A stretch of DNA of 64,000 nucleotides from Bilabrum cf. latius (GCA_965178125.1 OZ237762.1:62001-126000); one strand, 5' to 3'; shown: positions 6,696 to 64,000, counted from the stretch's first letter. Numbers and translations: made by a program. The notes: generated by a model not told the origin, from the letters alone.

Positions 6696-6772
6696 TCAGA
6701 GCCTGGCCTTGTGGCGTGACTCGTGTGTCCCTGTCGGCTTGAAGTACAACACAACTGCAGATGAAGGCTTGG

Positions 6773-15851: not shown

Positions 15852-18396
<2,545 letters not shown>

Positions 18397-18582: not shown

Positions 18583-21500
18583 TCATTCGAGCACCCGGCA
18601 GAAGCTCACCTGTGCCCCGGTTGGCAGGCCCAGTCCGCGGAAAGCCTCGAATGGCCGCCCCAGCTGACCCAGTGGCAGGGGCTCTGGAGCTTCGGCTGCA
18701 CCGGCCTTCGTACCGTCGTCTGTGGCCCCCCTTCGCCCCGGGGCAGACACCCGAGCCACCTAGAAGGCCCCCAGGACCTCCTCCCGGCTGGCGTGCGTGG
18801 CGCAGCAGACGTCGTCCACGCCCGTGCCCCACCGGTCAGACCCCGGCACCTCCGCTGGATCTGTCCCTTCCAAGGGGATGGGCAGCAGCGGGTCCGACCT
18901 CTGAGCGGCCGCCAGGGCAGCAGCGGCGTCCTCTGCCTCGGCCGTGCTGCCGGCCCCTCCCGCGGCAGAGGCCAGGGCGGCGCTCTGCCTGGCCAGCGCG
19001 GAGCCAGGGAACACTAGGGAGGCCACAGCGCGGAGCTGCTCGGGTATCTCTGCTGGAGGAGAGGTTGGAGCAGAGGCAGAGGCAGAGGCAGAGGATTGCT
19101 GCTGCGGCTCTGGCTCGCTGGCCACGGGGATCGGGGAGACCACCACGGGCCGGAGCGTCTCCCTCCGCCACCTGAGGAGGCCGTGCACGCCCGCGAAGAT
19201 CACTAGGCCGCGGAGGGTGCAGCTCAGGCCCCGCAGCTCGGCAGCGCACCTGCACTGCACGGCAGCGAGGGACTGCCCTGCACCGAAAGCAGCCAGCACG
19301 CGCACTGCATCCGCAATCGCCTACGCCCTAGCCTGGCGAGGGCCCCTGCTGATGTGGGCTGACACGGCGGAGAGAGCCGCTGCGGCCTGTCTGGACGCAG
19401 CGGAGGAGCCACTCGTGGTCGTATGATCTGCTGCATGGTCCGCCTATGACACTGGTGCTGCTGCTGGTGCTGCTGCATCCTGCTCGTGCTTGCCCCTTTG
19501 AGCCTCCTCCGCTGCATGCGCCATGGGAGGCATGGCTGCCGCGATAGCTGCATCCAGGCCGGGGCACAAGATGGAGGAGGCCGCCTTGCGGAGTCCCCTG
19601 TGCCGCACCAGCAGTGGCAGCCTGTCGGTGGCAGCGAACACCTGCTGCGAATGGCAGACGGGCAGCAGCACCGCAACCCGGGCGTCCACCAGCTGCTGCA
19701 CGGCAGCCAGGCACAGGGGCAGAGCCACATCGGCGGCCTCTGCGATGGCCCGGCAGTGCGCCATCCCGTCGATGCAGGGCAGCACCCGCCGCACGCACAG
19801 GTCCCACTCGGGGCCCACCAGTGCCTCGGCGTCGCGCACCCGCACCGGGACCAGCGCCGGACCAGCCACTAGTATGGGCAGCCGGCCGGGCAGGTCGGCA
19901 GCATGGGTCTGCCCAGCGGCCTGGTCGACGGCAGGGCTGAATTCCGGGAGTCGCAGCTGGCAGTTCGGCAGTGCGGGGCTTCGGAGCCGCAGCACCAGCG
20001 GGGCCACAGGTGCCCCGGAGTGTGATGGTGCCATCATCGGATCTACGGACGGGACCTGGGCGTCAGCGCCTGCCAGCGGTGCACCCGCTGCACTCCCGAT
20101 CGCCTTGTCTTGAGCTTGCAAGACATCATCTATACCTGATGACTGCTTCGTACGCGCAGAGAAAGAGTCCCCCGACTCCCTCTCCCCCACCACTGCCACT
20201 CGCGCCCCTGCACCCACGGCGGTCACGCCAGCTTGCCTGCCGCACTCCGCTGCCACATCGGGACCCCGCCTCCCTGCCTCCTCTCCCTCCCCCTCGCCCT
20301 CGCCCTCAGGCTCCTCTGCCCATCGCGACTGCACCACCTGCAGACCACTAGCTGACGCTTCCTTCCCAGCCCCTCTTTCAGCATCATCACCAGCACAGGC
20401 AGCAGGTGCCATCGCGGCTGATGCTCCTGCTGAGCCCTAGACACCGCTTGGAGCACCCGTCTCCGCTGCTGCTCCCGCCCCCACTCCCACTGCGCCCATC
20501 GCCACCACCGGCTCCCCCGCATCGGCCAAGCCCCACCCGTCCCAACGCACCGGCACGCAGCACTGCCCCGTCTCTCTAAGCCCGTCCACGCAATCCGCCA
20601 TGGCCTCCGCAAGGGCTCGCAGCCGCTCGGGCCGCGAGATGGCCTCGTGCTGCGCCTCCAGGGCACGCACTCTCACAGCCAGCTCTCGAACCGCCTCGCC
20701 GTGAGAGAACAGCACAGAGTGCGCCAGGTTCAACGACGGCTCAGCTGCGGGCTAGGGGTCCAGAGTGGCGGCGCCCTGGGCTTCGGGTGCCCCGCTAGGC
20801 ATAGCGTGCGGTGGAGCATACTCGCTAGCAGCTGCTGCGTCGATGTCGGAGTGCGAGTCACTGCCGGAATCGCTGCCAGAGTCGCTGCCGCTGTGTAGCG
20901 CGGAGCTGCCGCCGATGCTACTGCTGCTGCTCACGCGCGAATCTACACGTGGTCCGGTTGCTGCGGCTGGGCCCAGTCTATCTGCAGGGGCGTGTCCTGT
21001 CAATTGGATTGGAGCAGCGCCTTGAATGCGGTTTAGCTTCCCTGCATGCCCGCCATGTCGGTCCCTAGGACCTGGTGTGCTCTGGCCAGAGCTGGACCCA
21101 CCATTTGCACTAGCACCCGCAGCCTGACTTCGACCATCATCCGTTGGTGTCAATACCGACCCACTGTCGCTGGGTCCATTCGGTGCATCTGTCAGATCTC
21201 GACCCTTCCCTTCCACTTCGACATCCAATTCCGTGGTCCATCGACTCGGTTTCCTGTGCACGTGCGGGCTTGCAGCAGACAGAGGCACTGGGTGCCGGAG
21301 GGCAGAAGCAGACGCCGCGTGGGCGTGGCCGGGACCAGGGGCCACTGCGCGTGCTGCCACAGCGGCATGCCCGCTAGCTCTCCTTCGGCCCCCGTCGGAA
21401 ACATCGGCCATCGCGAGTGTGTCCGCCTCGGGCACCGCTAGACGGGCCGAGCCTGCTGAGAGGGCCCGCGGGCTGTCGGTCAGTGCAGGGGCTAGCCCGG

Positions 21501-22071
21501 CTCCTGGCTGGGCGAGAGTGGCTCCATTTATGCGTGCAGCATCATTTTGGTTTGTCTGCTTTGCCTATCTTTGCCTCTTCACCGCTGGCAGAACTACTCG
21601 AGCCTTTGGTGCATCTGGCATCCACCGCCTGCGCGGGGCAGATCTCCTGTGCTACCACGCGCTTAGAGTTGCAGACCGTCTTACAATAAATCCAACTGCA
21701 AATGTTAGAGCGTTTCTGTGGTACTGCTTGCCAGCTACTTGTGTATTCACGGCAATAACCCTGTCTTCGTGCACATTTGGTGTTGATCGCCCAGACCTTA
21801 CGATCTGTGGCACTGGGAGTGATACCAATCTCTACGTAAGCTCTGACTTCGACAAAAGCAGGTCTGAAATCTCCGCAAAGGAATCCTGCGTCAAACATCT
21901 GCGCCGTTCGGCCTGGTCATAGGTGCAAAAGAGAAGATTAAAGGGATTCTGGCGCAGTTTACACACTACAATACTAGTATCTCACGCATCGGGGTATGTA
22001 AATGCCAGGGTTGGGCCGTACTCGTTGTCAAAGACCGCCAAGAATACGCCCAAAAGTTCGAAATCGGACAT
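18583..22071 (-). CDS. NPRL2: GATOR1 subunit NPRL2-like protein with long low-complexity inserts; probable short intron near 21.9-22.0 kb
   Basis: VFLAVFDNEYGP, QYHRNALTFAVGF, WDLCVRRVLPCIDGMAHCRAIAEAADV; many in-frame TAGs; TGA stop. Confidence 0.75.
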
Positions 22072-29494: not shown

Positions 29495-32400
29495 ATGGAG
29501 GTATTTGTGGAGCGCGCATTGAAGAGGCTCGTCGCCGAGGGCAGGGGCGGCAACGCAGACCTTGAAAGTGCGTGCAATGGCGCCTTGCGTGAGTTGGAAT
29601 TATGCATTAGCATAGTTGTTTGTGTGCTTTGCAGTCCACGCTGGCATTTACAAAATGCGCTGAACGCTCCATCTAGCACGCTACCCACCAGTTCGTCGGC
29701 TGCGCGAGTTTGCCCCTGTTGCAGAAATTCCCATTAGTTTCATGACACTCCATATGTAATTTCTTGCAGAAACGCTCCAAAAACGGAAGGCAAGCGGAGC
29801 TACGGCCTCGGTGAGCGAAAAGGCGGACGATGCGGATCACTACTTCAGGCCGCTGCAGATTGCCTGCGAGACACGCTCAGCACGTATGAAGGCGATTGCA
29901 CTTGATGCTATTGAAAAATTGGTTGCTTGGGGTAACTTGACCGGTAACCTAACCGTGATTCAGAACGGCAGGATGCGGTACTTGATCGACATCGTCATCG
30001 AGACGGTGTGCTCGTGCAGGGACGAGAAGGCCGACTAGGTGCAGCTGCAGGTGGTCAAGTGCCTGCTCACTGCCGTGTCATCTACTAAGTGCCAGGTGCG
30101 CGAGTACTCCTTGCTGCTGGCGGTGCGCAGCGTGTACCACATCTACCTAGTGACGGGCAACCAGGTGAACCGCACCACTGCCAAGGCTAGCCTCACCCAG
30201 ATGCTGGACTTGGTGTTCAGGAGGATGACCCGCCTGGACGAGGGGGTGGCTAAGGGTGAGGCTATCCCTGAGAGGCTGCTGGTGGAGGTGGAGGAAGCAC
30301 CTGAGTAGCCCACCGCTGGGGAGAGGACCTTGCCAGCCGATGGGGGTGCAGGGGGGGAGCTGCGCCCCGTGTCCTTTGGAAGTAACGTGTACCCTGAGCT
30401 CGTGGCCATGCTGGGCTTCAAGCCAGCAGGAGGCGCTGCAGTGCCGCCCGAGGCCCCCGTGGCGCCCCCCAGGGGGGGGCCCGGGTCAGCTGCTAGCGGG
30501 GCGGGTGCTCCCAACGGGGGTGGGGGCGGGCCCCCCCCTGCCGCGGCTGGAGGGGCATCTCAAGCAGGAGAGAAGGCAGGCGAAAGCAAGGGGGAGAAAG
30601 AGGCAGGCGCAGGTGCACCCGACTCCGCCAAGGGCACTGGCACTCCGTCCAAGCCACGGTTCGGCGCCAGGCCGGAACAGGACGTGGAGGCCGAGCAGTT
30701 CGCATTCGCCAGCGTGTACCACCGCGACGCATTCTTTTTGTTCCGGGCCCTCTGCGTGCTGTCGGCCAAGGGGGAGGACGCAGAGGATCGGATCACGTCC
30801 GGGCTGCTGCGCACGCGCGACGACACGACGGCGGTGCAGAGCAAGGTGCTTGCGCTGGACCTGCTGCACACCACGCTGCAGAAGGCGGGGGCTTTCATGA
30901 GCAGGCACTCGGCCTTCGTGGCAGCTGCCAGGGCATACCTGGCCCCCGCGCTGCTGAAGAACTTCGTGAGTCCGCACCCCAGCGTGGTGTCCCTGTCGCT
31001 CCGCATCTTCGTGCTGCTGGTGCAGGGCTTCAGGGAGTACCTCAGCGAGGAGATCGAGATCTTCGTGACCACGGTCTTCCTCGAGCAGCTGCAGAGCAAG
31101 ACGGCCTCCCTTCGGCAGAAGGCAGAGGTCGTGGACTCATTCAGGGCTCTAGCGGCCGACAGCACGACCATCTTGGAGATCTTCTTGAACTATGACGCGG
31201 CCCCCGAGGAGGCCAGGAGGGAGCGTCTCTTTGACAGGATCACATCGGCGCTCACGTCCATCGCGCAGGGCAGGGCCACAGGGGACCTCAAGGCGGCGGC
31301 AGGCACGGAGAGCGAGTTGGAGGCGGTGCGGAGGTCGGCGCTGGCCACGCTCACGGCCATCATGCACTCCATGCGCAAGGCAGCAGAGGCCGTCAGCCGC
31401 CCGCAGCTGCTCAAGAGGCAGGTCTCGGGCGGGGCCGGGCTGGAGGGTGCCGCCGCTGGCGTGGGGGTGCAGGGCGCATCCCCGGCTCCCGCGCTGGGGC
31501 CTCCATCCGGAGCCATGGCTGCCCTCAGGGACGGACCCGCCCAGGACGCCCCCTCTTCGCCCGCCACTGGCAGAGACAGGGACTCTGTGGCGGGGTCGGC
31601 GACCAGCGGAACCCCCCTCGGTGCTGGGGGTGCGGATTCGGAGGCAGACGCGGGCCGTGGAGACGCCGGATCAGCTGCTGGCTCCGGTCCCGGGAGTGCG
31701 GCGGCGGGGGGCGCGCAGGGCAAGAGCGTCGCTGAGGCGTATAAGGAGGCCTCCAAGCGCAGGGAGCAGATTCGGCGCGCGGCCCTTCGGTTCAAGATGA
31801 AGCCCAAGGACGGTGTCAAGTACCTCCGCGAGATCGGGCGGGTGGACGACACACCCGAGGTGCTGGCCAAGTGCTTCTTGGACTTGCAGGACGTGCTCGA
31901 CAAGACGGCCATCGGCGACTACATGGGCGAGGACAAGGAGTTCAACATCGCCGTCATGCACGCCTATGTCGACCAGCTGGACTTCACGGGGATGAGCTTC
32001 GACGAGGCGATCCGGTACTTTTTGAAGGGGTTCAGGCTTCCCGGTGAGGCCCAGAAGATCGACCGCATGATGGAGAAATTCGCCGAGGTGTTCTGCACGC
32101 TGAACCCGGGGGTGTTCTCGAAGAACGACACCGCCTTTGTGCTGGGGTACTCGGTGATCATGCTCAACACGGACGCGCACAACCCCAACATTCCCCCGGA
32201 GAAGAAGATGACCCTAAAGGGTTTCCTCAGGAACAACAGCGGCATCGCGGACGGGCAGGACCTTCCCGAGCAGTTCCTGACGGACATTTACAACAACATC
32301 CGGGCCAACGCCATCAGCCTCAAGGAGGACGACGACCTCAGGGAGAACGAGCAGATCAAGACGGCCAGCCTCTCTACGGCCGACAGGCACGCCCTCCGCA

Positions 32401-35400
32401 GGTCGGAGCGCTCCAAGCTGGTCAAGGCGGGCGAGGAGCGCATCAAGGACCTCGAGAGGAAGAGGAGGAAGCGATCCACCATCATGGCGGCCTCGCCCAT
32501 CAAAGGGGGGCAGGCCAGCGGCGGGGCAGGCGCGGGTGCGGGCGCGTCCGCCGGGGAGGGCGGAGCTGCCCTGGCCTTGGCCACCCTCGCCGAGGTGGAC
32601 GAGGACTACGTGAGGCTGTCGGACCGGAGGGCGGAGGACGTGCTGGAGCCCATGATGGAGGTGGCGTGGGGCCCCATGATGGCCTCGTTCAGCGTGAACC
32701 TGGAGGGCTCCAACGACGCGAGGGTGGTGCAGCTGTGCATCAACGGGTTCAAGCACGCTGTGAGTCTGGCGGGCGTGCTGGGCATGTCGATGGAGAGATC
32801 CGCGCTGCTCGGGGCTCTCGTACGATACACCATGCTCGACTCGCCCACTCGGGCCTTCGGGAACAAGAACGTGCTGTGCTGCCAGGCCGTGGTGGCGCTG
32901 GCCCAGAAGCAGGGCGAGTGGCTCGGTGACGCGTGGGGCGTGGTGCACCGCTGCATCTCGCAGATCGCGAGGCTGCAGGCCCTCGCCTCGGGGGCGCGCG
33001 GGGACTCTGAGATCTTCGGGGCTGCGGCAGTGGCTGCGGCGCGCAACCGGAGCAGGGGCGGGGCTGTGCCCTCGCGCGGGGGCCGCCGGTCCCTGGGCGG
33101 CGTCGGCTCTGGCACCCCAGCCCAGCAGGAGGCTCGCCAGATCGAGAGGCGCAATGCTCAAGCGCTTGCGTCTGCCATCCCAGAGTCCTCGCTGCAGCGC
33201 GTGTACACGAACAGCTGCACGCTCTCCCAGGAGGCCATCGTGGACTTCATCACCCACCTGACGCACGTGTCGCTCGCGGAGCTCCACATCGCGGCACCCA
33301 CAGCGGCGGATCGCGCGGCGGAGGCGACGGCGGCGCAGCGGGGCGGTGCTTCCGGGCCTGGGGCTCAGAGCGGTGCGGGGGGCAGTCCTGCGGGCAAGCA
33401 CCAGGGCGGAGGTGACGGGGAGGGGGCGCGCGTGTACAGCCTGCAGAAGGTGGTGGAGACTGCTGACTATAACCTGCAGGTCAGGGGCAGGCTGACTTGG
33501 TCCAGGCTGTGGGGTTTGCTGAGCAGGGTGTTCACGGCGGTGGGCTGCAGCACGCAGTACCAGCTGGCGCAGTTCGCCATCGACGCCCTAAAGCAGCTGT
33601 CGCTCAAGTTCCTGGACAAGCCCGAGCTGGGCTCCTTCTCCTTCCAGAGGATCTTCCTGTCCCCGTTCGCCGCCATCATGGGGGCGCACCCGCGGGCCAA
33701 GCAGGGCATCAGGGAGCTCATCCTGTACGTGTTCCAGTTCCTGCTGCAGAAGAAGCCCGGCAAGTTCAGGTCCGGCTGGCAGACCGTGTTTGCGGTGCAC
33801 GGCATTGCGGCGCGGGACCCCACGCGGGAGATCATTTCGCTGGCTTTCAACACTGTGCACCAGATCGTGCAGAACCAGTTCCCGCAGGTCGTGAGGAACG
33901 CTGCGTTCGCCGACTTGGTCAACTGCCTGGTTGCATTCGCGTCCAACCCTCAGGCCGACAGCGCGGTGGGAGTCCGCTCTGTGGACCACCTCGCCGAGCT
34001 GGGGGCGCACCTGGCTCGCGGCAGGGTCCCGCTGAGGGATGGGAACGACGAGCACGTGAGGGCTGTGCTGGCGGCGGACAGCGGGTCGGATGGTGTGCCG
34101 CGCAGCACCGGGGGTCAGCCGGCGGACAGGGGTGCGGGTGCGGGTGCGGGTGCACCGGCAGAGAGCAAGGAGAGCAAGGAGGGCGAGGAGGAGGGCAAGG
34201 AGACGGAGGGGGCCGAGGCAGCCCGGCAGGCCTCTTCTTCCTTCGTGGTGCAGCCTGACTCGGGTGTGTTCTACGACATGGACGGCGAGGAGCACTCGGA
34301 CATCAGGAGGGCTTCGGCGGGGCCCATGGGGGAGCCCGACGAGGCCCCCGCTGCGGGGAAGGCTACGGGGCAGGGGCAGAGGGCGGGATTCGAAGACGCG
34401 TCTCCTCGAGGCATCGCGGACAGGCACCTGACGGGCGAGCGCGGCGGCGGCGGCCTGCTGCGACGATTCGATGACCGGCAGGAGCACACGGGTGCGTGGT
34501 GGCCCGTCCTCACCGGGCTCATGCGGCTGGTGGGTGACCCCCGGGAGGACGTGAGGCAGCACTCCCTGGACGTGCTCTTCGCATTGCTGCGGCGCTTCGG
34601 CGGTGGGTTCTCCGAGGGCCTCTGGCACCTGGTGTACACGGGTGTGCTGCTGCCCATTTTCGATGACGCGAGGCACACGGGGGGACACCAGGCCGCGGCC
34701 GACAGGGAACAGAAGGCGGAGGAGGCGGCGGCTGCGGGGAGACACGAGCTGATGCGGTCGAGGGCAGGCTCCTAGGGCGGGGCGGGGGCCCGGCTGGGAG
34801 CCACAGACGCGAGGTGGCTGCAGTCCAGCTGCTTGCCCGCCCTCAGCGCGCTTGTCCGGCTGCAGGCCCGGTTCTTCCCCCGGCTGCGTGCCATGATGCC
34901 CGAGCTGCTGCAGCTGCTGGAGGACTGCATCGCGCAGGAGGTGGAGGGGCTGGCCCGCATCGGTGTGTCGTGCCTGCACCAGCTGCTGGTGGAGGCCGGG
35001 TGGCAGTTCGACGCCGAGTGCTGGGAGATGGTGCTTGCGCTGCTGGGGCGGCTCTTCGTGGCCACCACCCCGAGGGACCTGATGGACTGCGAGACTCATC
35101 TCCTGGGCCCCAGCCCGGGTGATTTCTCCGAGGACGAGGAGGCGGGGGGGGAGGGAGGGCACCCCGTGGTAGTCACCGTGTTCGGGCTCGGCAAGCTGCT
35201 GGCAAGTCGCGAGGACGGCGTGTAGGTGGTGCAGCTGCCCTTTGGCACGCTGTACACCCACGGGGCGGTGAGGGAGGTGGCGGAAGGGGGCGCGGGGGCA
35301 CCCGTCCCTCCCTCCACCCCTGACAAGCCCATGCTGCCCAACGGCGCGCAGCCACCCGCCACCCGTGGTGGTCCAGGGCCAGGCAGGGCCACAGCGCCCG

Positions 35401-36311
35401 TGCCCCGGGCCATGGACCCTCCCCCCGCGCTCCCTTTCAACCCCTCCCGCGTGCTGACCCAGTGCGTGGTGCAGCTGGAGCTGGTCAGCGCCGTGGGTAT
35501 CCTGGCCAACTCGCATGTGGGGGCTCTCACCCTGGGCCAGCTCAAGCAGCTGCTGGGGCTGCTGGAGGAGTGCGCGGATTTCGCACGGCGCTTCAACTCG
35601 AACCGCCCTCTTCGGGAGGCCTTGCTGGAGGCTGGTTTCATGAAGAAAGCCAAGTTCAAGAGGGTGCCCTCCTTGCTGAGGCAGGAGAAGCAGAGCACAG
35701 AGGTGCTGCTGCAGCTGCTGCTTGGCATGCACACCCAGCTGCACGCACAAGGGGGTCTGGAGGGGGAGGGCGGGAAGCGGCACAAACTGGTCCTGCAGCG
35801 GCTGAGGGAGGTGGCGGGCGAGGTGGTGGGGCGGTTCGTGCGTTTGGATGCCTCAGTGGAGGCCATGCGGGTGCAGGCGCAGGCAGAGGCATCGAGCGCC
35901 TCTCAGGCAGCGGCGCGGCGGGCTGCGCAGGGGGGCAGGCGGGTGCAAGACCCAGCCAGGGCGGCGAGGAGCGCGGCTCGATAGGCCGTGTCCGTGGACC
36001 AGTCGGACAGGGAGGTGCTCCGTGAATGCTCGGCTTTTGGCCCGCTCGTGGTTCGGCTGCTGGAGGGGTGCTCCGGCATGTCTGCCGCCGAGTTCCGAGG
36101 CAGCCTGTGGTGGCTTTACCCGCTTCTGGTGCAGCTGATCCCCACGGGGAACCCGGCCGTGCGCAGGGCGCTGCGGGGTATCTTCGAGAACAAGCTGCCT
36201 GCCGTGCTGCCGCTAGATGCCCCTGCCGGCGTGCTGGAGGGCGAGGGCAGCGAGGCCGAGGAGGACGGGGGTGCGGACGCAGCGGGGGCGGCGGCCGGTA
36301 CGTCTGTTTGA
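29495..36311 (+). CDS. Large Sec7-domain ARF guanine-nucleotide exchange factor (BIG1/BIG2/Sec7 class); intron about 29589-29769
   Basis: DCB domain (QLQVVKCLLT, NRTTAKASLTQM), FLNYD, FRLPGEAQKIDRMMEKFA, YSVIMLNTDAHN, HDS regions; five in-frame TAGs. Confidence 0.95.
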
Positions 36312-36453: not shown

Positions 36454-39400
36454 ATGGCGGGTAGCGCTACTCCAAGTTCGGATTGGGAAGTCGGCGAATA
36501 TGTACTGGAGCGGGTTCTAGGCTCTGGAAGCTTTGCGAAGGTATACAGAGCCAGGCACAAGGAAACGGGGGAGACGTACGCTTGCAAGGTGATCCAGCTG
36601 CAATCCATCGATGCGAAAACCAGGAAAACAATTGAATCTGAGGTTACGGTACTCAAAGAAATAAGGCATCCAAACATTGGTGGGTTGTGCAGGCATCATT
36701 GTTAGTCCGCCTCCGCCTGAGCAGCGCAACCACCACTCCATTGCAGCATGTTTCTTGTGGCCTTATCGCAGTTAGGCTAGTGGACGTGATGCAGTCTAAA
36801 TCGCACATATTTCTCATGCTTGAGTTTGCGGCCGGTGGAGATCTATCTGACGCTCTTGTGCAGCACAATAAGGCCCTGAACGAGAAAGAGGTTCGGTACT
36901 TACTATGTCAGATCGCGGCCGGCCTAAAGGTACTGCACGGAGCTAGTATCGTGCACCGTGACCTGAAGCCATAGAATATCCTAGTGGAGGATGCCAAGGC
37001 ATTTCCCCGCAGCCGCGTGATGCTGGGTGACTTCGGGTTCGCGAGGCGGCTAGAGGTTGCTGAACTCGCCTAGACGCTGTGCGGCTCGCCACTGTACATG
37101 GCCCCAGAGCTGCTCAGGATGGAGTCGTACGATGCACGATGCGACCTGTGGAGCGTCGGGGTGATCCTCTACCAGCTGCTCTCGTCCCAGCTTCCCTACG
37201 GCGGCGCCAACCACCTCGATCTACTGCGGAACATCGACGCCGCAGGGCCCCGCAAGCTGCCCGAAGACGTGGCAGCGCGTACCTCGGCCCCGATGCGGCG
37301 GCTGCTCGGCGGCCTGCTGCAGCCAGACCCCCTCGTCAGGGCCAGCTTCCACGAGTTCTTCAGGTCGCCAGCAGTGCGGGCTCCCGAGGGGTTTGACGTG
37401 AGCAAACTGAAAGGGGCGGGGACAGAGGGGGAGGCCGAAAGTGGGGGTGCTTATGGGGAGCAGGCGAAGGGCGGGGGCAAGGCAGGGGCAGGACCGGCGA
37501 CACCTATGCAGAGAGGCATGTCTGGTGCAGGCCAGCTTGAAGGAGCTGGAGGTTCATCATCGTCTGCTCCTGGTGCGGGGGGGGCAGCTGGCGATGTGGA
37601 AGGAGAAGGGGAGGGGCTGCTGCCTGATGACTCGCTGGAGAGACTCCTGGGGGACATGAAGGGCATGGTACGTGGGGGCCGGGTGCTGGTGCGAGGGCTG
37701 CAGGAGGACCCAAGTGCAGGTGGCACCAGGAACACAGCCAGCCTGGAGGGTGCAGCGCACGGTCGCTCCCCGCCCGGCCCAGCCGAGACATCGCCCACAT
37801 CGCAGGTGCAGGTGCACAGTCGACTGACACTGGATCCGGCCGCGCATCTCTCCCGACTGCCCCCTCGCGTGGCAGTGCGCGAGCTGTGGGAGGGCTGTCT
37901 GGAGCAGCAGGCGCAGGCGCGCTGCACGGGGACTGGAGGCCGGATGGGGGCAGGTGACCGTGCAGCAAACTCGCTGTCGCTGCACGCCGCTGCGATGCAG
38001 GGGTCGGCGCACAGCAGCGGCATATGGGAGCCCCAGCTCTCGAGTGTGACGAGTGCGGTGGCAGGTGCAGGTGGTTCGGGTGACGGCGCGACGCGGCAGA
38101 GGCTAGCTGCGGATCGCAAGGCGCGGTGCGTCGAGATGTTCCGCTTCCTGGGTCATGGCGCGGCGCCGCGTCCATCCGCCACCCGTGCTGTGCTCGAAGC
38201 CCGCCTGCGGGCTGCGGGGCTGCAACTCGGGCCGGTCGCGATGAAGGAGACAGAGACGGAGGCAGAGGCAGGGGCAGGGGCAGGGGCAGGGGCAGGGGCA
38301 GCATCGGGGAGTCGGGGCGAAGATGCCTCCGACGGTGCATTGCGCGGTAGTGGCAGCGGCAGCACGTCTCATTAGGAAGAAGACTCGCCGGCCGGGCCCC
38401 GGTCTCCGAACGTTGTTCCCCTCCGGCGCGGAGGCACCGCGGCTGGGATCGCTGGGTCTGCCTCGGCTGTCACGGATGGGTCCCACACTGGGGTGGGCGG
38501 GGGCAGGCAGGGCTCGAAAGTCGTTCCCGAGGCGGGGACTGGGGCAGGCACGGTCGAAGCGGGGGCGCGCGCCGCTCTGCTGCAGGACGCCGCCGGTCTC
38601 TCTATCCAGACAGACCACCCCCTCGCAGACACAGCAGCCCAGCACGCCAGCCTGTCTGACTCCCAGAGACCCCCGCTGCCTCCTGCAGTCGCAGTTGCCC
38701 TACCAGCGCCCTCTGCAGGCTGGCACCCACCCCCCTCGTCTTCCTCCTCATAGCGTGGCTCCCCCGCCACCGCAACCGACGGAGCCTCGGACTCGTCCAG
38801 TCCCTCTGGGGCGGGGGCGGGGCAGGGGCACGGAGGTGCCTTCGAGGTGGTGGGAGGGTCCTCCCCCAGGGCACAGACACCTTCGCGGGCAGGAACAGGG
38901 AACAGTGGCCGGGTGCTGACTCCTCCCCGAGTCAGGACAGGATCGGGCGCCAGCTCAAGGCGGGGCTCGGGGTCCCCTCTGGTGGAGGGCCCAGGGGAGG
39001 GGTCAGCTACACCGGGGGAGAGCGGCAGCGGGGGCAGCGACAGTCCGCAGTGGGGCCTCCGCGCCGATGGAAACACGGATGCAAGCCGGATGCAACCTGA
39101 GGAGGCGGTGGCACTGCCACTCGGACACAGGAACAAGGAAGATACCAGCAGTGCCCCCGGTGGAGATTCAGGAGGCAGTGCTGACCCTGGCCCGCGTGAC
39201 GGCAGACCGCTGGCTCTCGTCCCCGATGGCACCACGGGGCTGCCAGCGCACATAGTCATGGTCCCGCGGGGCCGGACGTCGATCGACTCTAGAATGGTGG
39301 CCGCACAGCAGGAAGCACACGCCTGTCGGGCAGTGGCCCAGTTCGGTATCTCGGTGGCAGGGGAAGCAGCGGGAGCGCCCGTGCCGCTGCCCTGGCTGCG

Positions 39401-40361
39401 AACTGGTGGCAAGGCCAAGGGGGTCGATGCAGGCGATAGAATAGGAGCTGCAGGCGATGGGATAGGAGCTGCAGTGGATGGATAGCACGGCTGGTGGGTG
39501 ACGCAGGAGGCTCTCCCGGCCGCTGGATCGCAGGAGCCGCTGGTCAGCGCGGAGCTGCTGCTGGGCGCCCTTGAGGAGCAGGCGACATCTGCTGAGGTTG
39601 GGAGGAGGAGGAAGGAGGAAGAGACGGAGAACGAGGGAGGGGGTAGTTCGGGGGCGGGACCCGCTGCTGCCAGTGCTATTCCTGGGGCCCTGCACGCTTC
39701 ACTCATGTAGCGCGTGGCAGATCGCATGGAAGCAGCGGCCGCTCGTCGACAGGCCGCGGCAGTGTCCTTGCTGCTGGCCGCATCTGCCATGTGCGAGGGT
39801 CTTGCCCTGAGAGCGGCAGGGGCGGGGCCGCAGCTGGCCGGTCTGGAGCGCTGGGCCCTGGGGCTGGGCCGGCGGTGCGAGGCCGAGGCGCGCCCCTGCA
39901 TCCGGGCGCTGGCCCGACTGGAGCCGGGGGACAGGCCGCCGCTGCCGCCGCCTGCTGACATGTGCATGCAGGCTGCCGCGAGGGTGGTGCAGCGGGCGGC
40001 GGCGCTGCAGTGCGTTGCACCCGGATGTGCGGCGGTCGTGGCTCACGCAAGCCTCGGTCGCGACTTGGCCCGGGCTGCGTGGAGCGGAGCAGTGAACGGA
40101 CATGTTGGCGTGGATGAGCACAATCACCAGCAGGGACAGGGACAGGGAGGAGGAGAGCACGCGGGGCGAGCGAGGAGGGATGCGCTGCAGAACCCGCTTG
40201 CGAGACGAGCAGCAGCTCTGGAGCTTGTGGCGCACCAAGCCATCGTGCTGGCTGGAACTGAAGCGGCTGGTGCGAAGAGTGCAATTGCAGGCAAGGAGAG
40301 GAATGGGGTGCGAATAGAGGGCAAGCAGGATGAAGAGGAGAGCAAGGGCAAGGAGGCGTGA
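36454..40361 (+). CDS. ATG1/ULK-family Ser/Thr kinase; intron about 36680-36770
   Basis: LGSGSFAKVY, HRDLKP*NIL (family HRDLKPQNIL), DFGFARRL, A*TLCGSPLYMAPE; six TAGs; TGA stop. Confidence 0.85.
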
Positions 40362-56160: not shown

Positions 56161-56380
56161 GACACAAGTGTTGAGGATCATATTAAGCCCCCCCGGGGTC
56201 TGGTCTCGAGCCGGGGGGGCTATGGCAACCTTGCTCCGTCTTTATCTCTGCCTTCATCTCTGTGCCGAACAAATAGGCATCCACTCTACAACATAGCAGC
56301 TCCTAGGCCATGCACTCATAAACTGCCTACGCACGCCTCTGCTCCGTCACGTCGGTCCTCCGACAGCATCCAGGCCGATA

Positions 56381-58793
56381 GTGGCCCGCTGGCCAGCTGC
56401 AAAGCCCCGCATCCTCGTCCACCCGGTGGAGTCGAATGCCGTGCAGCAGCCCCAGCCCGTCAGTGGCCCGCTGGCCAGCTGCAAAGCCCCGCATCCTCGT
56501 GCACCCGGTGGAGTCGAATGCCGTGCAGCAGCCCCAGCCCGTCATTGGCCTGCTGGCCAGCTGCAAAGCCCCGCATCCTCGTGCACCCGGTGGAGTCGAA
56601 TGCCGTGCAGCTGCCCCAGCCCATCAGTGGCCCGCTGGCCAGCTGCAAAGCCCCGCATCCTCGTGCACCCGGTGGAGTCGAATGCCGTGCTGCTGCCCCA
56701 GCCCGTCAGTGGCCCGCTGGCCAGCTGCAAAGCCCCGCATCCTCGTCCACCCGGTGGAGTCGAATGCCGTGCAGCAGCCCCAGCCCATCAGTGGCCCGCT
56801 GGCCAGCTGCAAAGCCCCGCATCCTCGTGCACCCGGTGGAGTCGAATGCCGTGCTGCTGCCCCAGCCCATCAGTGGCCCGCTGGCCAGCTGCAAAGCCCC
56901 GCATCCTCGTGCACCCGGTGGAGTCGAATGCCGTGCAGCTGCCCCAGCCCGTCAGTGGCCCGCTGGCCAGCTGCAAAGCCCCGCATCCTCGTGCACCCGG
57001 TGGAGTCGAATGCCGTGCAGCAGCCCCAGCCCGTCAGTGGCCCGCTGGCCAGCTGCAAAGCCCCGCATCCTCGTGCACCCGGTGGAGTCGAATGCCGTGC
57101 TGCTGCCCCAGCCCGTCAGTGGCCCGCTGGCCAGCTGCAAAGCCCCGCATCCGCGTCCACCCGGTAGAGTCGAATGCCGTGCAGCTGCCCCAGCCCATCA
57201 GTGGCCCGCTGGCCAGCTGCAAAGCCCCGCATCCTCGTCCACCCGGTGGAGTCGAATGCCGTGCTGCTGCCCCAGCCCATCAGTGGCCCGCTGGCCAGCT
57301 GCAAAGCCCCGCATCCTCGTCCACCCGGTGGAGTCGAATGCCGTGCTGCTGCCCCAGCCCGTCAGTGGCCCGCTGGCCAGCTGCAAAGCCCCGCATCCTC
57401 GTGCACCCGGTGGAGTCGAATGCCGTGCAGCTGCCCCAGCCCATCAGTGGCCCGCTGGCCAGCTGCAAAGCCCCGCATCCTCGTGCACCCGGTGGAGTCG
57501 AATGCCGTGCAGCTGCCCCAGCCCGTCAGTGGCCCGCTGGCCAGCTGCAAAGCCCCGCATCCTCGTGCACCCGGTGGAGTCGAATGCCGTGCAGCAGCCC
57601 CAGCCCGTCAGTGGCCCGCTGGCCAGCTGCAAAGCCCCGCATCCTCGTCCACCCGGTGGAGTCGAATGCCGTGCTGCTGCCCCAGCCCGTCAGTGGCCCG
57701 CTGGCCAGCTGCAAAGCCCCGCATCCTCGTGCACCCGGTGGAGTCGAATGCCGTGCAGCTGCCCCAGCCCATCAGTGGCCCGCTGGCCAGCTGCAAAGCC
57801 CCGCATCCTCGTCCACCCGGTGGAGTCGAATGCCGTGCAGCAGCCCCAGCCCATCAGTGGCCCGCTGGCCAGCTGCAAAGCCCCGCATCCTCGTGCACCC
57901 GGTGGAGTCGAATGCCGTGCAGCTGCCCCAGCCCATCAGTGGCCCGCTGGCCAGCTGCAAAGCCCCGCATCCTCGTGCACCCGGTGGAGTCGAATGCCGT
58001 GCAGCTGCCCCAGCCCGTCAGTGGCCCGCTGGCCAGCTGCAAAGCCCCGCATCCTCGTGCACCCGGTGGAGTCGAATGCCGTGCAGCAGCCCCAGCCCGT
58101 CAGTGGCCCGCTGGCCAGCTGCAAAGCCCCGCATCCTCGTGCACCCGGTGGAGCCGAATGCCGTGCAGCTGCCCCAGCCCGTCAGTGGCCCGCTGGCCAG
58201 CTGCAAAGCCCCGCATCCTCGTCCACCCGGTGGAGTCGAATGCCGTGCAGCTGCCCCAGCCCATCAGTGGCCCGCTGGCCAGCTGCAAAGCCCCGCATCC
58301 TCGTGCACCCGGTGGAGTCGAATGCCGTGCAGCAGCCCCAGCCCATCAGTGGCCCGCTGGCCAGCTGCAAAGCCCCGCATCCTCGTGCACCCGGTGGAGT
58401 CGAATGCTGTGCAGCAGCCCCAGCCCGTCAGTGGCCCGCTGGCCAGCTGCAAAGCCCCGCATCCTCGTCCACCCGGTGGAGTCGAATGCCGTGCTGCTGC
58501 CCCAGCCCGTCAGTGGCCCGCTGGCCAGCTGCAAAGCCCCGCATCCTCGTCCACCCGGTGGAGTCGAATGCCGTGCAGCTGCCCCAGCCCATCAGTGGCC
58601 CGCTGGCCAGCTGCAAAGCCCCGCATCCTCGTGCACCCGGTGGAGTCGAATGCCGTGCAGCAGCCCCAGCCCATCAGTGGCCCGCTGGCCAGCTGCAAAG
58701 CCCCGCATCCTCGTGCACCCGGTGGAGTCGAATGCCGTGCAGCAGCCCCAGCCCATCAGTGGCCCGCTGGCCAGCTGCAAAGCCCCGCATCCT
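56381..58793. repeat. 82-bp GC-rich tandem satellite, about 29.4 copies
   Basis: Exact 82-nt periodicity (track ORFs recur every 82 nt); variation mostly at four positions. Confidence 0.98.
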
Positions 58794-59048
58794 TGTTCTA
58801 TATAGTAGAAATAGAGTTATCATAACTCCACATTTTGGCGGATAACATAAGAGGTCAATATTAACCACTTCACAACATCTTAAGCCGTAGTCCTTCATAA
58901 TGTCCTTCACTTGAACATAATAATTTAATAGCTATTTATTCATATATCTACCTAATTTAATACCTTCGCGCCGTTAATGTCTATCTGTTAGACCTTTACT
59001 TTACTTAATCTGTTGAGTGAATCCCTAGCCTAAGTCTTAGGATATGCC

Positions 59049-60235
59049 CGCCCGAAATTGCGGAAATATATAGTCATTTAAGAATATATGTTCGCAATTC
59101 TGGGCGCGTAGGTGTATTGAGTTTTATATTATGATTTGGTTTTAAGTATCAATTGACATTTACCACTTTAGAAAATAACTAAATAAATACTTAAAGAGAT
59201 TGACAGAAGTATTAAAGTCTTTTTAATACTTCCAATGAAAAATTTAAATTAATAAATAAAACTAAACTAATATATCAACTTAATTTATCTCTTTTTTTAT
59301 TACTTGTCAATCTATACTTAAATAATTGAATATTTAAATATAACTAGAAGGAGATATTAATCACTTTATAAAGTCTTTTATATGTCATCTCTTCAAAACT
59401 TCAAATATAAGGGTATCCCCTTAAAAATACATCCTTTAATCTATCGCCCGAAATTGCGGTAATATTATAGCTATTCAAGATATATTTCCGCAATTCTGGG
59501 CGCGTAGGTGTATTGATTTTTATTTTTCATAATTCTTTAAATATGTTAAAGTCCTTTGTTTGAGTATATGATATAAAGGAATACAAAGCGGGATAACTTA
59601 AAAATGATAAATGTTTTGACGATGACTTTAAAATGACTCAATGAACTGGTTTATGTCAAGTGTATTACTTTGAAATGATTAATCACTAGATTAAATGGAA
59701 AATATAGGATAATTAAATATGGTATAGTATAATACTAGCGCCCGAAATTGCGGTAATATATTAGGATATTAAGATATATTGTCGCAATTCTGGGCGCGTA
59801 GGTGTATTGAGTTTTATATTTTGTTAATTTTGACATAGTTATCTTATAGAGGTGTAATTTTGTAATAAAGATATTTCTAGTATGTGCTATATTAAATGTC
59901 CAGAAATGACGGCCCGAAATTGCGGAAATATATTAGGATATTAAGAGATATTGTCGCAATTCTGGGCGCGTAGGTGTCTTCAATAATTAATAATCAACTA
60001 CTTCTTTATTTTGATTAATTTTTTTGACTTACCGTTCATTTTATTGACCACTTAACGGGATATCACAAAAAGACTTAACCACTTGACGAGATATTTTAAA
60101 ATAACTAATAATAAATATGACCGCCCCAAATTGTATCTCCAGATATGACCGCCCCAAATTGTATCTCCAGATATGACCGCCCCAAATTGCGGAAATATAT
60201 AAGTATCAAGAAAATTATGTTTGCAATTCTGGGCG
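59049..60235. repeat. Five dispersed imperfect palindromes: CGCCCGAAATTGCG-N30-CGCAATTCTGGGCG
   Basis: Copies start at 59049, 59445, 59739, 59911 and 60178; two 28-bp half-site tandem copies at 60115-60170. Confidence 0.95.
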
Positions 60236-60339
60236 CTCACCCGTATTCAATTTTACATATTCACTAACTCATACCACTTATTTTAAGTCATTTTCTAGTT
60301 TTAAAAACTTAAAGATTTATCTAGTATATTACTATAGTA

Positions 60340-60549
60340 ATGCCAGATATTAAAGATGTATTAAAATAGGTTCAAGACATTATGGAAGATTATCAAAGAC
60401 TCAAGGAATAGGAGACCAAAAAGAAGGAAGCTATTAAAAAAGCTAAATAGAAATATTACCAAAAGAATCAAGAGAAATGGAAGGGGTACTATTAGAAGAG
60501 AAAACAGGTTAAGGATGAACCAGATACAGAAGGATTAAATAAGACTTAA
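60340..60549 (+). CDS. Small basic viral-type protein (69 aa, four TAGs); absent from the ORF track
   Basis: MPDIKDVLK*VQD...KYYQKNQEKWKGYY*KRK...; TAA stop. Confidence 0.7.
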
Positions 60550-60581
60550 AAATATATTTTATTATTATAGTATTATTAATA

Positions 60582-60794
60582 ATGGATTTAATAGATACCA
60601 AATCAAATAATCAAGTTATCAATAAACCAATACATCAATTACAAGACTTACCAATAGAGTTTCAAGAGACTATAAGTTATTTACTAATCGGGAAATCCCC
60701 AGCAGAAATTGAAAAATTTAAAAATACTCTAGTTGTGCGCGAAAATCCATCTCAATCCTTTAAGCCAAAATAGTGCGTCTAGAAAATGACTTAA
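60582..60794 (+). CDS. Small hypothetical viral protein (70 aa)
   Basis: ATG after the shared upstream motif; two TAGs and then TAA. Confidence 0.5.
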
Positions 60795-60824
60795 AAAATT
60801 ATCTTTAGTATAGTATATACTAGA

Positions 60825-63623
60825 ATGACGACCGAACACATATCTAACCCTGTTTATTTCTCAATAGCTCACAACTCTAAACAACCACTTATTAAGTCTT
60901 GGTAGAATTTGGAATCTACTAAACTTATCACCAGAAAGTCAAATCTTAATGTTGGATTACTAACTGGAAGACGTGCAGGTTTCTTTGTCCTTGACTTAGA
61001 TTGTGAAAAAGAGAAAAATAAAACTGAATTTCAAAATGGTAAGTTTATTGCGGAATATGGTAGTGTTGATAAGTTTATTCAAGAGATGAATACTTACACT
61101 GTCAAGTCTCCCAATGGATATCATTTGTATTTTAAGTATGAAGAAGAGTTTAGTAAGAGGTCAGTAAATAGAAAAGAACATATAGATGTGATCACAAATG
61201 ATAGCTTTATCATGTGTCCTCCTAGCTCTATCAACGGTAAGAAATACGAACTAATACAAAAGACATCCGTGAAAAGAATACCAACTGACGTCAAGATGTT
61301 CATACTACAAAATATCTATTCACCACAACTTACAGCTGAAGACTACCGTTATATGATTAAACCCGAAGAATACAAACAATACTTATATCAATTAGGTAAA
61401 GAGTATTATTCTAATTCATATAACTGGCATCTAGTTTGTAGAGCTACAAGTTATATCGCTAAATACTTAAATCCAGTAGATGGTAATAAGGTATATGATA
61501 TATTTGATGAATGGAGCAAACAAGACGTAGAAAGCTATTAGTCGACTAAGAACAAGATAATTTTTACTCGATTATTACAAAATTCCACTTTTCAATGTGT
61601 TGAATGGTTCTTTAACTAGTTAGATAGTGAAAAGAAACGACTTAGCCTATATTATCGATACAAGATATTCAAGAATAAAGTAGTCAAGAAAGTCAATTAG
61701 AAGATTGACCGTAGATATTTGACTGCTGACGACAAAGGTCGTTATATTAAATTCTTTAAGAAAGGTATCAACTATGCCGTTAAGTCGGGGGCTGGTTCTG
61801 GAAAGACAACTGCTGCTAATGATTTATTTAATAGAGTAGATGACAGCTTTTTATCAGTTGTTAGTCGTATTTTATTAGGTAAGCAATAGATGCGTAGTCT
61901 TCCAAAATCAACTAAATTCTATCAAGACCATAAATACAAATAGGGTGATAGTATTGTTATTACTCCTGAAAGTATTGTTAGTCTTAGCAATTATAACTTT
62001 AAGGATTATATTGTCTTTTTAGATGAGTTTAATAGTATCTTAGAACACTGTTTAAGTTCTACGACTTTATATGGTAGGCGACCAATGAGTTTCATTACTC
62101 TTATTCGTGCTCTTACCACTTGTAAGTAGTTCATAGTAGCAGATGCTGACTTATCTCAAGATGCTCTATATTTCTTAGAATTATTAAAATTAGATTATCA
62201 ATATATTAGGAATGACAGAAACAGGTTCAAGGGCACCAAAACTGTATTTGTTAATGACGAACAGACTTTTAGAGATGAGTTAATGAAACACAAGAAATTT
62301 ATGCTTGCTAGTGATAGTAAGACAAAAGCTGATATAATCAATGAGTTAATTAGTCTTAAAATTATAGATAACGAGAAAGATAAGAAATTAAATAAAATCT
62401 TAATACTTACAGCAGAAAGCGAAGACAAAGACTATGATATGGATATGTTTGATATCATTATCTTCTCACCTAAAGTCATTTACGGGATAGATAGCACTAT
62501 GACTAGACCAGTCTTTGGTTATTTCAAAGGTCATACTATCACACCTCCCCAAATGGTTCAATAGCTTAACAGATGTAGAAACCCATCACATATCACTATA
62601 TTTTTTGATTACTAGAAAGGACGATCTAGCACATATGAAAGTCTTTCACAAGTTAAATCTTTTATGGCTACCTCTTTAAAAGACTACGAAGAATTAGTTA
62701 AATTTGTCAGTGATACATATCCCGACTTCAACGAGGTAGAAGTAGAAGACAAAGTAGAAGAAGAAATGAGCAAAGTTAAAATCATATTCAAAAAACTATA
62801 TCGTAATTATCTTTACAAGGTAGATTGTTATAAGACAAACCCTAAATTACATATGATCAAGTAGTTAATTGATACCGGTTATGACGTGTCTTATGATTTA
62901 TCTGTTAAGATCACCAGATGTAAGGATAAAGAAATCAAAGATACCATTAAAGAAAAACAACTTGAAAATTTTGATATTAATTGTCTTAATGTCAAGAAGA
63001 TTAATAAATATTTAGACTTAGATGAAGGTGATATTGACAAATACAAAGAGTACTTTATTAATAAAGGTAAGTTATCTAATTTATTTAATTTCAATAAATT
63101 CTTTAGACAAGATGATAAGCACTTACTTGTGAAAGCAATTAATAAAGGCGAGTTTGATATTATCAATGCTAAGTCTAGTTCTAGAAAATTAGTCTTACTT
63201 AATAAGATGATTGATACTTTAGGTCTTAAAAGAACTAATCTTGATTATAATATCAAAAAGAAAGTATTAGATCAAGACTTAACAGATGAATATAGGACAG
63301 TGTATGACTGCCAAAGAAGAAGTAAAGTTGACTTATCCACTGATAAAGGTCTTTATTACGAAATACTTAAAGTATATAAATCAATGTTTGGGAAAGACAT
63401 ATTTATGACTTGTAAGAAAAAGAAAATTAACTATGATGTAGAATTTAATTAGGATATTATTGATGAGATGGAATATATCTGGTCTAACAAGAAAAAGACT
63501 CGTGAAGTAGATATATTTGTTGATGATGAAGAGGTTCAATTACCCGATGAAGAGATAGAGGTTGACTTAGACCCCGCTTTATTTGTTGATGAGGATAATG
63601 ATCCACTAGAACAACAAAATTAA
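60825..63623 (+). CDS. Prim-Pol primase fused to a PriCT-like region and an origin-binding-protein-like SF2 helicase (932 aa, 11 TAGs)
   Basis: NVGLLTG, VLDLD, KSPNGYHLYF, FDEWSK; KSGAGSGKTT, SVVSR, VFLDEFNS, ADADL, SPKVIYGID, MVQ*LNRCR; no TAA or TGA until the final TAA. Confidence 0.9.
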
Positions 63624-63685
63624 ATTATGACTTATTAATAAAAAACTTAATAAGACTTAATAATACATACCTTATATAAAATGAC

Positions 63686-64000
63686 TTAGTGGTCTCTTTT
63701 TGTCTTTTTAATTTTTTCTTCTCTCTTCTTCCTTTCACATTCACTTCTTTCAACACGATACATCAGCTCCTAGACGTGTTTCACTTGCTCTTCATATTCT
63801 AACTGTTCCAATGTACTTTCGAGTTTCTTGATAATATTGTCGAATTTAAAACTAAAGACATTCTAACGATAACCATCACCTTTGTCTTTTGGTTTCATCC
63901 ATACATATTTATCAAAGTGATTCTCAATACTTTTACCTATACTACTGACTACATCATCGACACCTACACCTTTAACAAGACATTCATCTATAAAATTTTG
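63686..64000 (-). CDS. 3' part of a hypothetical viral protein (runs off the window)
   Basis: 104 open codons with two TAGs ending in TAA, convergent with the helicase. Confidence 0.6.

Follow-up and report, generated by a model that had tools for sequence, protein, structure and literature searches.

The DNA described here is a stretch of 64,000 nucleotides from the assembly of Bilabrum cf. latius (GCA_965178125.1, OZ237762.1:62001-126000), which we call the window and number from its first letter. Its last part, 58798-64000, is an AT-rich element joined to GC-rich DNA with eukaryotic nuclear genes. In a composition scan, GC content lies between 48 and 72% up to 58.8 kb and then drops from 0.62-0.70 at 57-59 kb to 0.28-0.31 at 59-64 kb; the eukaryotic side has 63% GC and the element side 30%, with the switch falling within 58794-58798. 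A preliminary description of the window had placed the start of a virus-like element at 58794, which is correct within 4 nt. The consensus of a host satellite holds to position 58793 and a palindrome arm of the element holds from 58798, while the four nucleotides between them fit neither fully, each side being matched at two of the four positions. The element carries four open reading frames (ORFs), named A, B, D and, for the largest, the replication gene (Table 1).

The replication gene and the meaning of TAG

Read with TAG as a sense codon, the plus strand from 60825 to 63623 forms one ORF of 932 codons, with 11 TAG codons (residues 27, 239, 265, 292, 355, 373, 435, 580, 597, 680 and 876), no in-frame TAA or TGA, and a terminal TAA. 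That such a frame is improbable by chance had been stated in the preliminary description and is borne out by shuffling. In 2000 mononucleotide shuffles of the ORF, TAA occurred 42.7 times and TGA 19.0 times on average, and their sum never fell below 40; about 62 in-frame stops are thus expected where none is observed, and a chance open frame is rejected. The other five frames of the same stretch contain 19-139 TAA and TGA codons. The remaining ORFs have the same habit, with four TAG codons in 60340-60549 (ORF A), two in 60582-60794 (ORF B) and two in 63686-64000 (ORF D). Over the approximately 1,175 codons of all four there is no in-frame TAA or TGA, and each ends in TAA, as previously claimed; TGA is unused in the element and UAA is its stop. 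Two finer points of the earlier account hold as well: ORF A spells the peptide YYQK once with CAA and once with TAG, and the TAG inside the helicase motif MVQ-TAG-LNRCR corresponds to residue 580.

A word-index search with the 932-amino-acid protein returned 29 relatives. One of them (P0002) is identical and lies on a separate single contig of 48.6 kb, two more (P0003 and P0004) share 87% and 84% identity, and the rest do not exceed 37%. Since proteins in databases could already have been predicted with a recoded table, the DNA of relatives was fetched. Relatives of the protein are encoded by 51 IMG/VR loci (L001-L051), and 39 of these hold an intact ORF of at least 600 amino acids under the standard code; the other 12 are cut by the end of the locus or failed the motif filter. 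Among the 39, the column of residue 355 is glutamine in 36 (32 CAA, 4 CAG) and that of residue 580 in 37 (30 CAA, 7 CAG), against a background of 3% glutamine in the alignment; leucine, tyrosine and glutamate are absent at both near-invariant columns. Glutamine is also the commonest residue at column 435 (13/39), and occurs more weakly at 265 (5/39), 876 (4/39), 373 (2/39) and 27 (1/39). The other four TAG columns hold different residues: N or D at 239, K or I at 292, K at 597 (38/39), and I, L or M at 680. At columns 355, 580 and 435, 22 distant database homologues give glutamine in 20, 20 and 10 cases. The near-invariant glutamine columns free of leucine, tyrosine and glutamate show that TAG is glutamine in the element, as the preliminary description had proposed; glutamine enrichment at the TAG sites of homologues, which it had named as the check on this proposal, is present at 36/39 and 37/39. 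TAG makes up 19 of the 58 glutamine-type codons (CAA, CAG and TAG) of the four ORFs, and a share of about one third points to long evolution under this code.

The protein itself has an N-terminal Prim-Pol domain (Pfam PF09250, E 8.9e-14, residues 13-153); no helicase family reached the Pfam threshold on the window protein, and PF02399 or PF04851 is annotated on 7 of the 29 homologues. All 29 invariant columns of a 25-sequence alignment are kept in it. They include the primase catalytic residues D57/D59 (DxD), H100 and D121, and the helicase residues G326/K327 (Walker A), D400/E401 and Q579/R583/R585 (motif VI). Compared with structures in the PDB, the alignment profile matches the herpesvirus replication origin-binding protein over the N-terminal helicase core (E 2.6e-8, profile positions 305-443) and the prim-pol of pRN1 ORF904 (E 3.6e-6, positions 8-137). 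The copies in three public sequencing runs differ from the window at five coding positions, four of them synonymous. By these motif and profile matches the gene is intact and encodes a fusion of an archaeo-eukaryotic primase (AEP) of PrimPol type with a UL9-like helicase of superfamily 2 (SF2).

These data also bear on the idea that the element is a decayed endogenous viral fossil whose TAG codons are ordinary nonsense mutations. Protist assemblies often contain endogenous viral elements whose genes are interrupted by numerous premature stops (PMC10120064). Decay would have to yield 11 TAG and no TAA or TGA in 932 codons at 30% GC, and would have to place TAG at invariant glutamine columns while sparing every catalytic motif; it would also have to leave four of five differences between variants synonymous and repeat the TAG-only pattern in three more ORFs. 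Pseudogene decay is rejected on these grounds, and we give the fossil next to no probability.

Viral relatives and the code of the host

The 51 related loci are viral contigs of 4-28 kb with 20-48% GC, 49 of them at 36% or less. When their 563 ORFs were clustered, a P-loop ATPase of about 260 amino acids was found in 31 loci, with a profile that matches the packaging ATPase B204 of STIV (E 3.3e-6). In 20 loci there is a protein of about 580 amino acids whose AlphaFold model (pLDDT 81.7, pTM 0.84) is that of a double-jelly-roll (DJR) capsid protein of the type found in polinton-like viruses (PLVs). In Foldseek the best match of this model is the major capsid protein (MCP) of Singapore grouper iridovirus (SGIV, E 6e-16), followed by PBCV-1 Vp54, with further matches to faustovirus, p72 of African swine fever virus (ASFV), mavirus and Sputnik; in BFVD it matches an MCP of giant viruses (nucleocytoplasmic large DNA viruses, NCLDV; E 8e-20). 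The model of a protein of about 680 amino acids, present in 26 loci, has only a weak likeness to penton or minor capsid proteins (pLDDT 70, TM 0.17-0.19). Sputnik-type capsid domains are present in L002, L003 and L016, in L003 with PF21915 at E 1.3e-73 and PF22031 at E 1.8e-43. The replication gene thus occurs beside both Sputnik-type and PLV-type capsid genes and is common to virophage-type and PLV-type genomes, which is consistent with the module swapping described among these viruses (10.64898/2026.07.28.741278; 10.64898/2026.06.19.733378).

In a FastTree phylogeny of 62 sequences, the window protein groups with P0003 and P0004 on a long branch within a clade of 99% support that also holds P0005-P0009 and L053; L003, L009 and L025 stand next outside. 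Supports of this kind are local only, and other rows carry long-branch warnings. Searches and tree together make the replication gene orthologous to those of capsid-bearing virophages and PLVs, and the earlier claim of virus-like DNA stands. The nearest relatives with visible DNA are L052 and L053, at 33% identity and in standard code; they encode a weakly matching AAA ATPase and a fibre-like protein with a match to the YadA stalk (in L052, a 670-amino-acid protein at 4864-6876 on the plus strand, possibly a trimeric fibre). A 315-amino-acid product of L053 (1079-2026, plus strand) matches tyrosine recombinases weakly, at E 5.1e-5, its 23.6 bits falling short of the 27.1-bit cut-off. Elsewhere among the loci, Pfam finds only a glycosyltransferase in 10 ORFs of L001, and the virophage-type L002 has a gene for an N6/N4 DNA methyltransferase into which a helix-turn-helix is inserted (6143-7042, plus strand; PF01555 E 3.6e-40, PF01381 E 1.9e-5). 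The 23 loci that cover whole contigs have no terminal repeats at their ends; these contigs are fragments. Searches with back-translated peptide patterns found no near-identical copy of the element in IMG/VR or the JGI metagenomes. On the strength of its replication gene and of the anatomy of its end, described below, the element appears to be virophage- or polinton-like.

The host genes of the window follow the same code, as far as their sense codons tell. The BIG/Sec7 ArfGEF gene has 2166 codons with five TAG (codons 76, 166, 1655, 1805 and 2058), and Pfam recovers its domains DCB, HUS, Sec7, HDS and BIG2_C in order only if TAG is read through. Genes for importin-5, a ULK-type kinase and NPR2 are likewise open only with read-through, of 4, 6 and 8 TAG respectively. 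Together the four genes comprise 5899 codons with 23 TAG and no TAA, and all four terminate in TGA. In the kinase motif HRDLKP-TAG-N, TAG aligns with a glutamine of human ULK1. For the importin, a word-index search gave nothing at E <= 1e-20, and a HMMER search found 537 relatives, of which 50 among the best 150 were aligned (49 long distant sequences and one fragment of 74% identity). Glutamine is joint top among the 49 at TAG columns 248 (11/49) and 365 (13/49), with a background of 5%, and the 74%-identical relative has glutamine at column 657. The preliminary description's view that the host shares the code therefore holds: TAG is a sense codon there too, most likely for glutamine, judging from the four read-through genes and the ULK1 and importin columns.

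Its remark that standard-code gene calling misses such viruses is true only in part. The identical viral protein P0002 is stored at its full 932 amino acids, whereas the host importin is split at TAG: P0031 is a stored fragment of 196 amino acids ending at residue 247, and the first TAG is codon 248. That P0031 stops just before TAG shows that at least one public protein set used an incorrect code for the host, whose genome should be re-annotated with the right one. Five further public fragments, 65-74% identical to the host importin (P0032, P0033, P0036, P0037 and P0039), are stored as short pieces. Such identities mean that related organisms have been sequenced, and the short pieces hint that TAG-sense code and mis-annotation extend to them. 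The host nuclear genes of window positions 1-56000 are long, largely intron-free ORFs. One ORF for an SNF1/AMPK-type kinase (16555-18396) begins in mid-domain, at position 108 of the Pfam profile, which implies at least some host introns or an upstream exon in another frame. The host's Sec7 region resembles clusters labelled mostly Streptophyta, which points weakly to the green lineage.

Shared code also weighs on the view that the AT-rich DNA comes from another organism or compartment, either as a virus of a different recoded protist or as mitochondrial or plasmid-like DNA. The contrast of 30% and 63% GC would suit such an origin, and some organellar codes reassign TAG, which means leucine in some green-algal mitochondria. 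TAG of the element nevertheless aligns with glutamine, leucine being absent at columns 355 and 580, its relatives are capsid-bearing viral contigs, and the flanking nuclear genes have the same TAG-sense code. In three of the public runs introduced below (X1, X2 and X6), the first bin, which holds the satellite, has depth alongside the element, and GC below that of the host is usual for integrated virophages and PLVs (10.64898/2026.07.28.741278). The window contains no tRNA gene and no Rfam family, hence no suppressor tRNA. We reject organellar DNA with TAG as leucine for its glutamine rather than leucine columns, the lack of tRNA and Rfam families in the window and the capsid-bearing relatives, and consider a foreign origin of whatever kind very improbable.

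The end of the element and its junction with host DNA

From 58798 to 60339 there is no credible ORF, and none of at least 60 amino acids with a homologue. The region instead holds five imperfect palindromes of about 58 nt, here called boxes, each with conserved GC-rich arms, an AT-rich spacer and a conserved tail; aligned as windows of about 96 nt that contain them, they have a mean column identity of 83%. The UL9 protein binds box sequences, and by analogy the helicase-primase of the element may bind these. Between the boxes and the coding region, and again ahead of ORF B and the replication gene, lies the motif TAGTATW. It occurs nine times in the element, where about six copies are expected from composition by estimate, so only its positions are notable; they make it a candidate promoter element.

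Table 1. Positions of the element's features and of neighbouring host features in the window
Feature	Position	Strand	Basis or remark
Host TAG-containing long ORFs, further examples	10115-14251, 36687-40361, 18583-21966		
Host BIG/Sec7 ORF	29811-36311		
Host 82-bp satellite array, adjoins element	56380-58793	.	Tandem Repeats Finder: 29.4 copies, 97% matches
Junction or filler, 4 nt	58794-58797	.	By eye, against satellite consensus and palindrome end
Terminal palindrome arm	58798-58814	.	Contigs of runs X2 and X6, window sequence
Non-coding end region (putative terminal inverted repeat, about 1.43-1.49 kb)	58798-60279	.	Inner boundary in 60235-60290
GC-rich palindromic box unit 1	59049-59106	.	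DNA fold -14.4 kcal/mol, z -3.4
Palindromic box unit 2	59445-59502	.	DNA fold z -4.3
Palindromic box unit 3	59739-59796	.	DNA fold z -5.2
Palindromic box unit 4	59911-59968	.	DNA fold z -3.4
28-nt tandem repeat, before box unit 5	60115-60198	.	Tandem Repeats Finder
Palindromic box unit 5, most diverged	60178-60235	.	DNA fold z -2.5
TAGTATW, candidate promoter motif	60322-60328	+	18 nt upstream of ORF A ATG
TAGTATW, further copies	60568; 60806 and 60811		14 nt upstream of ORF B; 19 and 14 nt upstream of primase-helicase
ORF A, 69 aa, lysine/glutamine-rich	60340-60549	+	4 TAG, TAA stop; no homologue found (ORF scan, Pfam, relatives' ORFs)
ORF B, 70 aa	60582-60794	+	2 TAG, TAA stop; no homologue found (ORF scan, Pfam, relatives' ORFs)
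PrimPol (AEP) and UL9-like SF2 helicase, 932 aa	60825-63623	+	11 TAG read as Gln, TAA stop
ORF D, 104 C-terminal codons of a gene cut by the window end	63686-64000	-	2 TAG, TAA stop; no homologue found

Six public runs from two studies hold 89-93% of the sampled words of the element, and there is no RNA run among them. Logan contigs of four runs (X1, X2, X6 and X7) were compared with 58660-64000. In X7, from the same study as X1, only chance matches of 21-26 nt were seen and the satellite had no coverage, so X7 is no empty-site control. In X2 and X6, a contig that runs rightwards from 58798 has nine additional letters to its left, equal to 58806-58814 in reverse complement; with this loose end the sequence becomes a 26-nt palindrome free of mismatches, whose centre lies between 58801 and 58802. 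Read from these contigs, the palindrome suggests a hairpin tip or a head-to-head junction, and with it a free or replicative form of the element. The variant present in X1, X2 and X6 differs from the window at five to six sites, five of them common to the three runs, which implies that the window derives from another data set.

The k-mer depth of contigs over 58829-60267 exceeds that of the single contig over approximately 60250-64000 by a factor of 1.4-2.3 (27-32 and 18.6 in X1, 644-769 and 458 in X2, 950-1148 and 504 in X6), and 60235, 60279 and 60290 are sites of contig breaks or branching. Contig depth is not copy number; raised depth and branch points together suggest a terminal inverted repeat (TIR) of about 1.45 kb. 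In X1 a contig of depth 3 joins 59123 to 59445 and skips the 321 nt between box units 1 and 2; this is a shorter version of the repeat region, one unit having been lost.

Whether the element is part of a chromosome is a separate matter. The preliminary description called it endogenous, and for this label the evidence points both ways: the assembly has one host-element junction, and its position fits an opened hairpin, while the fold-back end in X2 and X6 points to a free or replicative form. None of the contigs listed for X1, X2 and X6 bridges 58793-58829, but with 265 pieces and 39 loose ends outside the listing this weighs neither way. The window has no integrase gene. The join lies 4 nt beyond the palindrome axis (58801/58802). 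Off-centre opening of hairpins followed by end joining is established for other hairpin ends, and a join so placed is the footprint expected of an off-centre nicked hairpin tip ligated to a break and a poor fit to random shearing. It raises the chance of genuine chromosomal integration to somewhat better than even; that the joined molecule is chimeric we hold to have somewhat less than an even chance. The satellite sits exactly at the join (56380-58793). Three of its plus-strand frames are open for more than 800 codons, owing to its GC content.

By the alternative account, the element is a free linear genome, episomal or from virions, present in the culture, and the satellite join at 58794-58797 is an artefact, produced by a chimeric long read or by wrong joining of a contig tip. 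Several observations agree with it. The X2 and X6 end continues as a palindrome and not into satellite, the variant of three runs from two studies stands 5-6 sites apart from a window of different origin, and an identical protein lies on the separate 48.6 kb contig. A join exactly 4 nt past the axis, as hairpin opening and end joining would leave it, is unlikely to arise by shearing of a molecule longer than 20 kb, and comparison at the join found no sequence common to satellite and element that could mislead an overlap assembler. Integration of virophages and PLVs beside repeats and in subtelomeres has moreover been described (10.64898/2026.07.28.741278). A wholly free genome accordingly keeps a considerable likelihood, though one we would not bet on.

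Proposed explanation and comparison with known systems

Taking these results together, we consider it likely that 58798-64000 is one end of a small linear double-stranded DNA virus of the virophage or PLV kind, which shares the TAG-glutamine code of its host. This end would comprise a non-coding terminal repeat of about 1.45 kb with five boxes, two tiny ORFs, the PrimPol-helicase and the tail of a convergent gene. The virus would be translated by the cytoplasmic machinery of the host under the same code and would have evolved so for a long time. Its helicase-primase may recognise the palindromic boxes in both terminal repeats as origins and prime DNA synthesis there, with genome ends that are hairpins or pass through head-to-head palindromic junctions in replication. 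One such end, opened 4 nt off its tip, would have been joined to the host satellite; the chromosome may be entered through such an opened and end-joined hairpin, or else with the help of an integrase whose gene lies elsewhere. If a helper giant virus is needed, it must tolerate or share the code.

Several points weigh against this explanation. ORFs A, B and D have no detectable relatives: none has a Pfam family above the cut-off, comparison with the 563 ORFs of related loci gave nothing significant (best E 0.0094), and a comparison of ORF D with the convergent ORF of L052 scored no better than E 20. The 5.2 kb of the element within the window contain no capsid, ATPase, protease or integrase gene. 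The nearest relatives L052 and L053 have few genes in common with the capsid-bearing loci, and the 663-amino-acid ORF of L052 matches neither of the two capsid profiles (hhalign probability below 1%). The palindromic continuation is just nine letters long and comes from assembled k-mer contigs, and the terminal repeat, read from contig depth, is a hint only. X2 and X6 also show a second context, ten letters unlike the window directly before 58829, where a 15-nt palindrome (58814-58828) ends; candidates for it are the opposite end of the genome, a flip/flop form of this terminus, and a variant. As for the host code, importin TAG column 316 is D or E in relatives, the glutamine of the close relative at column 657 could itself be a read-through TAG, the glutamine assignment rests on few informative sites, and that TAA is a stop in the host is deduced from two facts alone, the lack of TAA in 5899 host codons and the stops used by the element.

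A bolder form of the proposal is a living PLV or virophage with a hairpin-ended linear genome, kept at high copy in cultures of its TAG-glutamine host, integrating through opened hairpins and locked to the host lineage by the code, with TAG at a third of its glutamine codons. In this full form we regard it as rather unlikely. If true, it would provide a cultured pair of eukaryotic DNA virus and host with a reassigned stop, in which the code barrier could be tested directly, together with the prediction that any helper giant virus is recoded too. The wider interest is that viruses rely on host decoding, so that reassignment of a stop should keep foreign viruses out of a host and confine those it already has. 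Eukaryotic DNA viruses offer few examples of recoding; here it is TAG-only, heavily used and found in a replication gene that is intact. As contigs reach high depth in runs of two studies, the pair of virus and host may be open to experiment, and the palindromic end with its 4-nt join gives a testable picture of replication and integration in virophages and PLVs that lack the protein-primed DNA polymerase (pPolB). Such a picture has been proposed from sequence alone (10.64898/2026.07.28.741278).

Both halves of the replication protein have known counterparts. Its helicase core and prim-pol match the herpesvirus origin-binding helicase UL9 and pRN1 ORF904 by profile (PDB 9hgj, 9hgi and 1rni), but here the two domains are fused in one 932-amino-acid protein of a small virus.

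Genomes of the poxvirus or chlorovirus style are linear double-stranded DNA with covalently closed terminal hairpins, and the palindrome through the tip recalls hairpin telomeres of this kind, although a hairpin and a head-to-head replicative junction are not distinguishable from it. For the code, NCBI translation table 15 reads UAG as glutamine with UAA as stop, and Tetrahymena reads both TAA and TAG as glutamine. The nuclear code of Iotanema spirale likewise has UAG as glutamine and keeps UAA as stop (PMC5304391). Iotanema and table 15 agree with our case in a sense TAG aligned with glutamine and in TAA and TGA as stops; the present host differs in being GC-rich and intron-poor. The polinton-related Tlr elements of Tetrahymena thermophila, with DJR capsid genes (PMC4028283), also reside in a host with reassigned stops, but they are germline-limited ciliate elements with other replication genes, and both TAA and TAG are reassigned.

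The virophages (with Sputnik-type MCP) and PLVs with AEP primase-helicase modules represented by L001-L051 share a homologous replication gene (24-33% identity, E down to 1e-110) and AT-rich genomes, dense with short intergenic regions. All 39 relatives checked use the standard code, whereas the element reads TAG as glutamine. AEP primase fusions with helicases of SF1 or SF3 are listed in 10.64898/2026.06.19.733378; the helicase half of the element is UL9-like SF2. Endogenous virophages and PLVs of Halocafeteria seosinensis lack pPolB and carry terminal palindromes in their TIRs, for which a hairpin-priming model has been put forward (10.64898/2026.07.28.741278). Like the present element they are low-GC inserts in a protist of higher GC, with end palindromes tied to replication genes other than pPolB. 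Their host has 47% GC and their TIRs measure 0.5-0.8 kb; in the present case run contigs show the fold-back directly, and the putative TIR would be about twice that length. The text of that preprint makes no mention of "genetic code", "stop codon" or "TAG".

The closest parallel in coding is found in the endogenous polinton-like elements of Streblomastix strix, which use the TAA/TAG-glutamine code of their host (Bellas et al. 2023, PMC10120064). In both cases elements of DJR-virus type in a protist follow the host's reassigned-stop code, a sign of long association. In our case TAG alone is reassigned and TAA still works as a stop, and the host, with its GC-rich DNA, does not belong to the oxymonads. 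Contigs from cultures or samples of two studies also point, at high depth, to a palindrome-ended form that is free. Giant-virus metagenomic bins, too, are better annotated under alternative codes (PMC13524828). Beyond these bins and the Streblomastix elements we found no recoding of virophages or PLVs in the literature searched; the supplements of PMC10120064 may contain more recoded cases. Recoded endogenous viruses as such have therefore been published already; what the present element adds is TAG-only recoding, the fusion with a UL9-like SF2 helicase, and contig evidence of a fold-back end.

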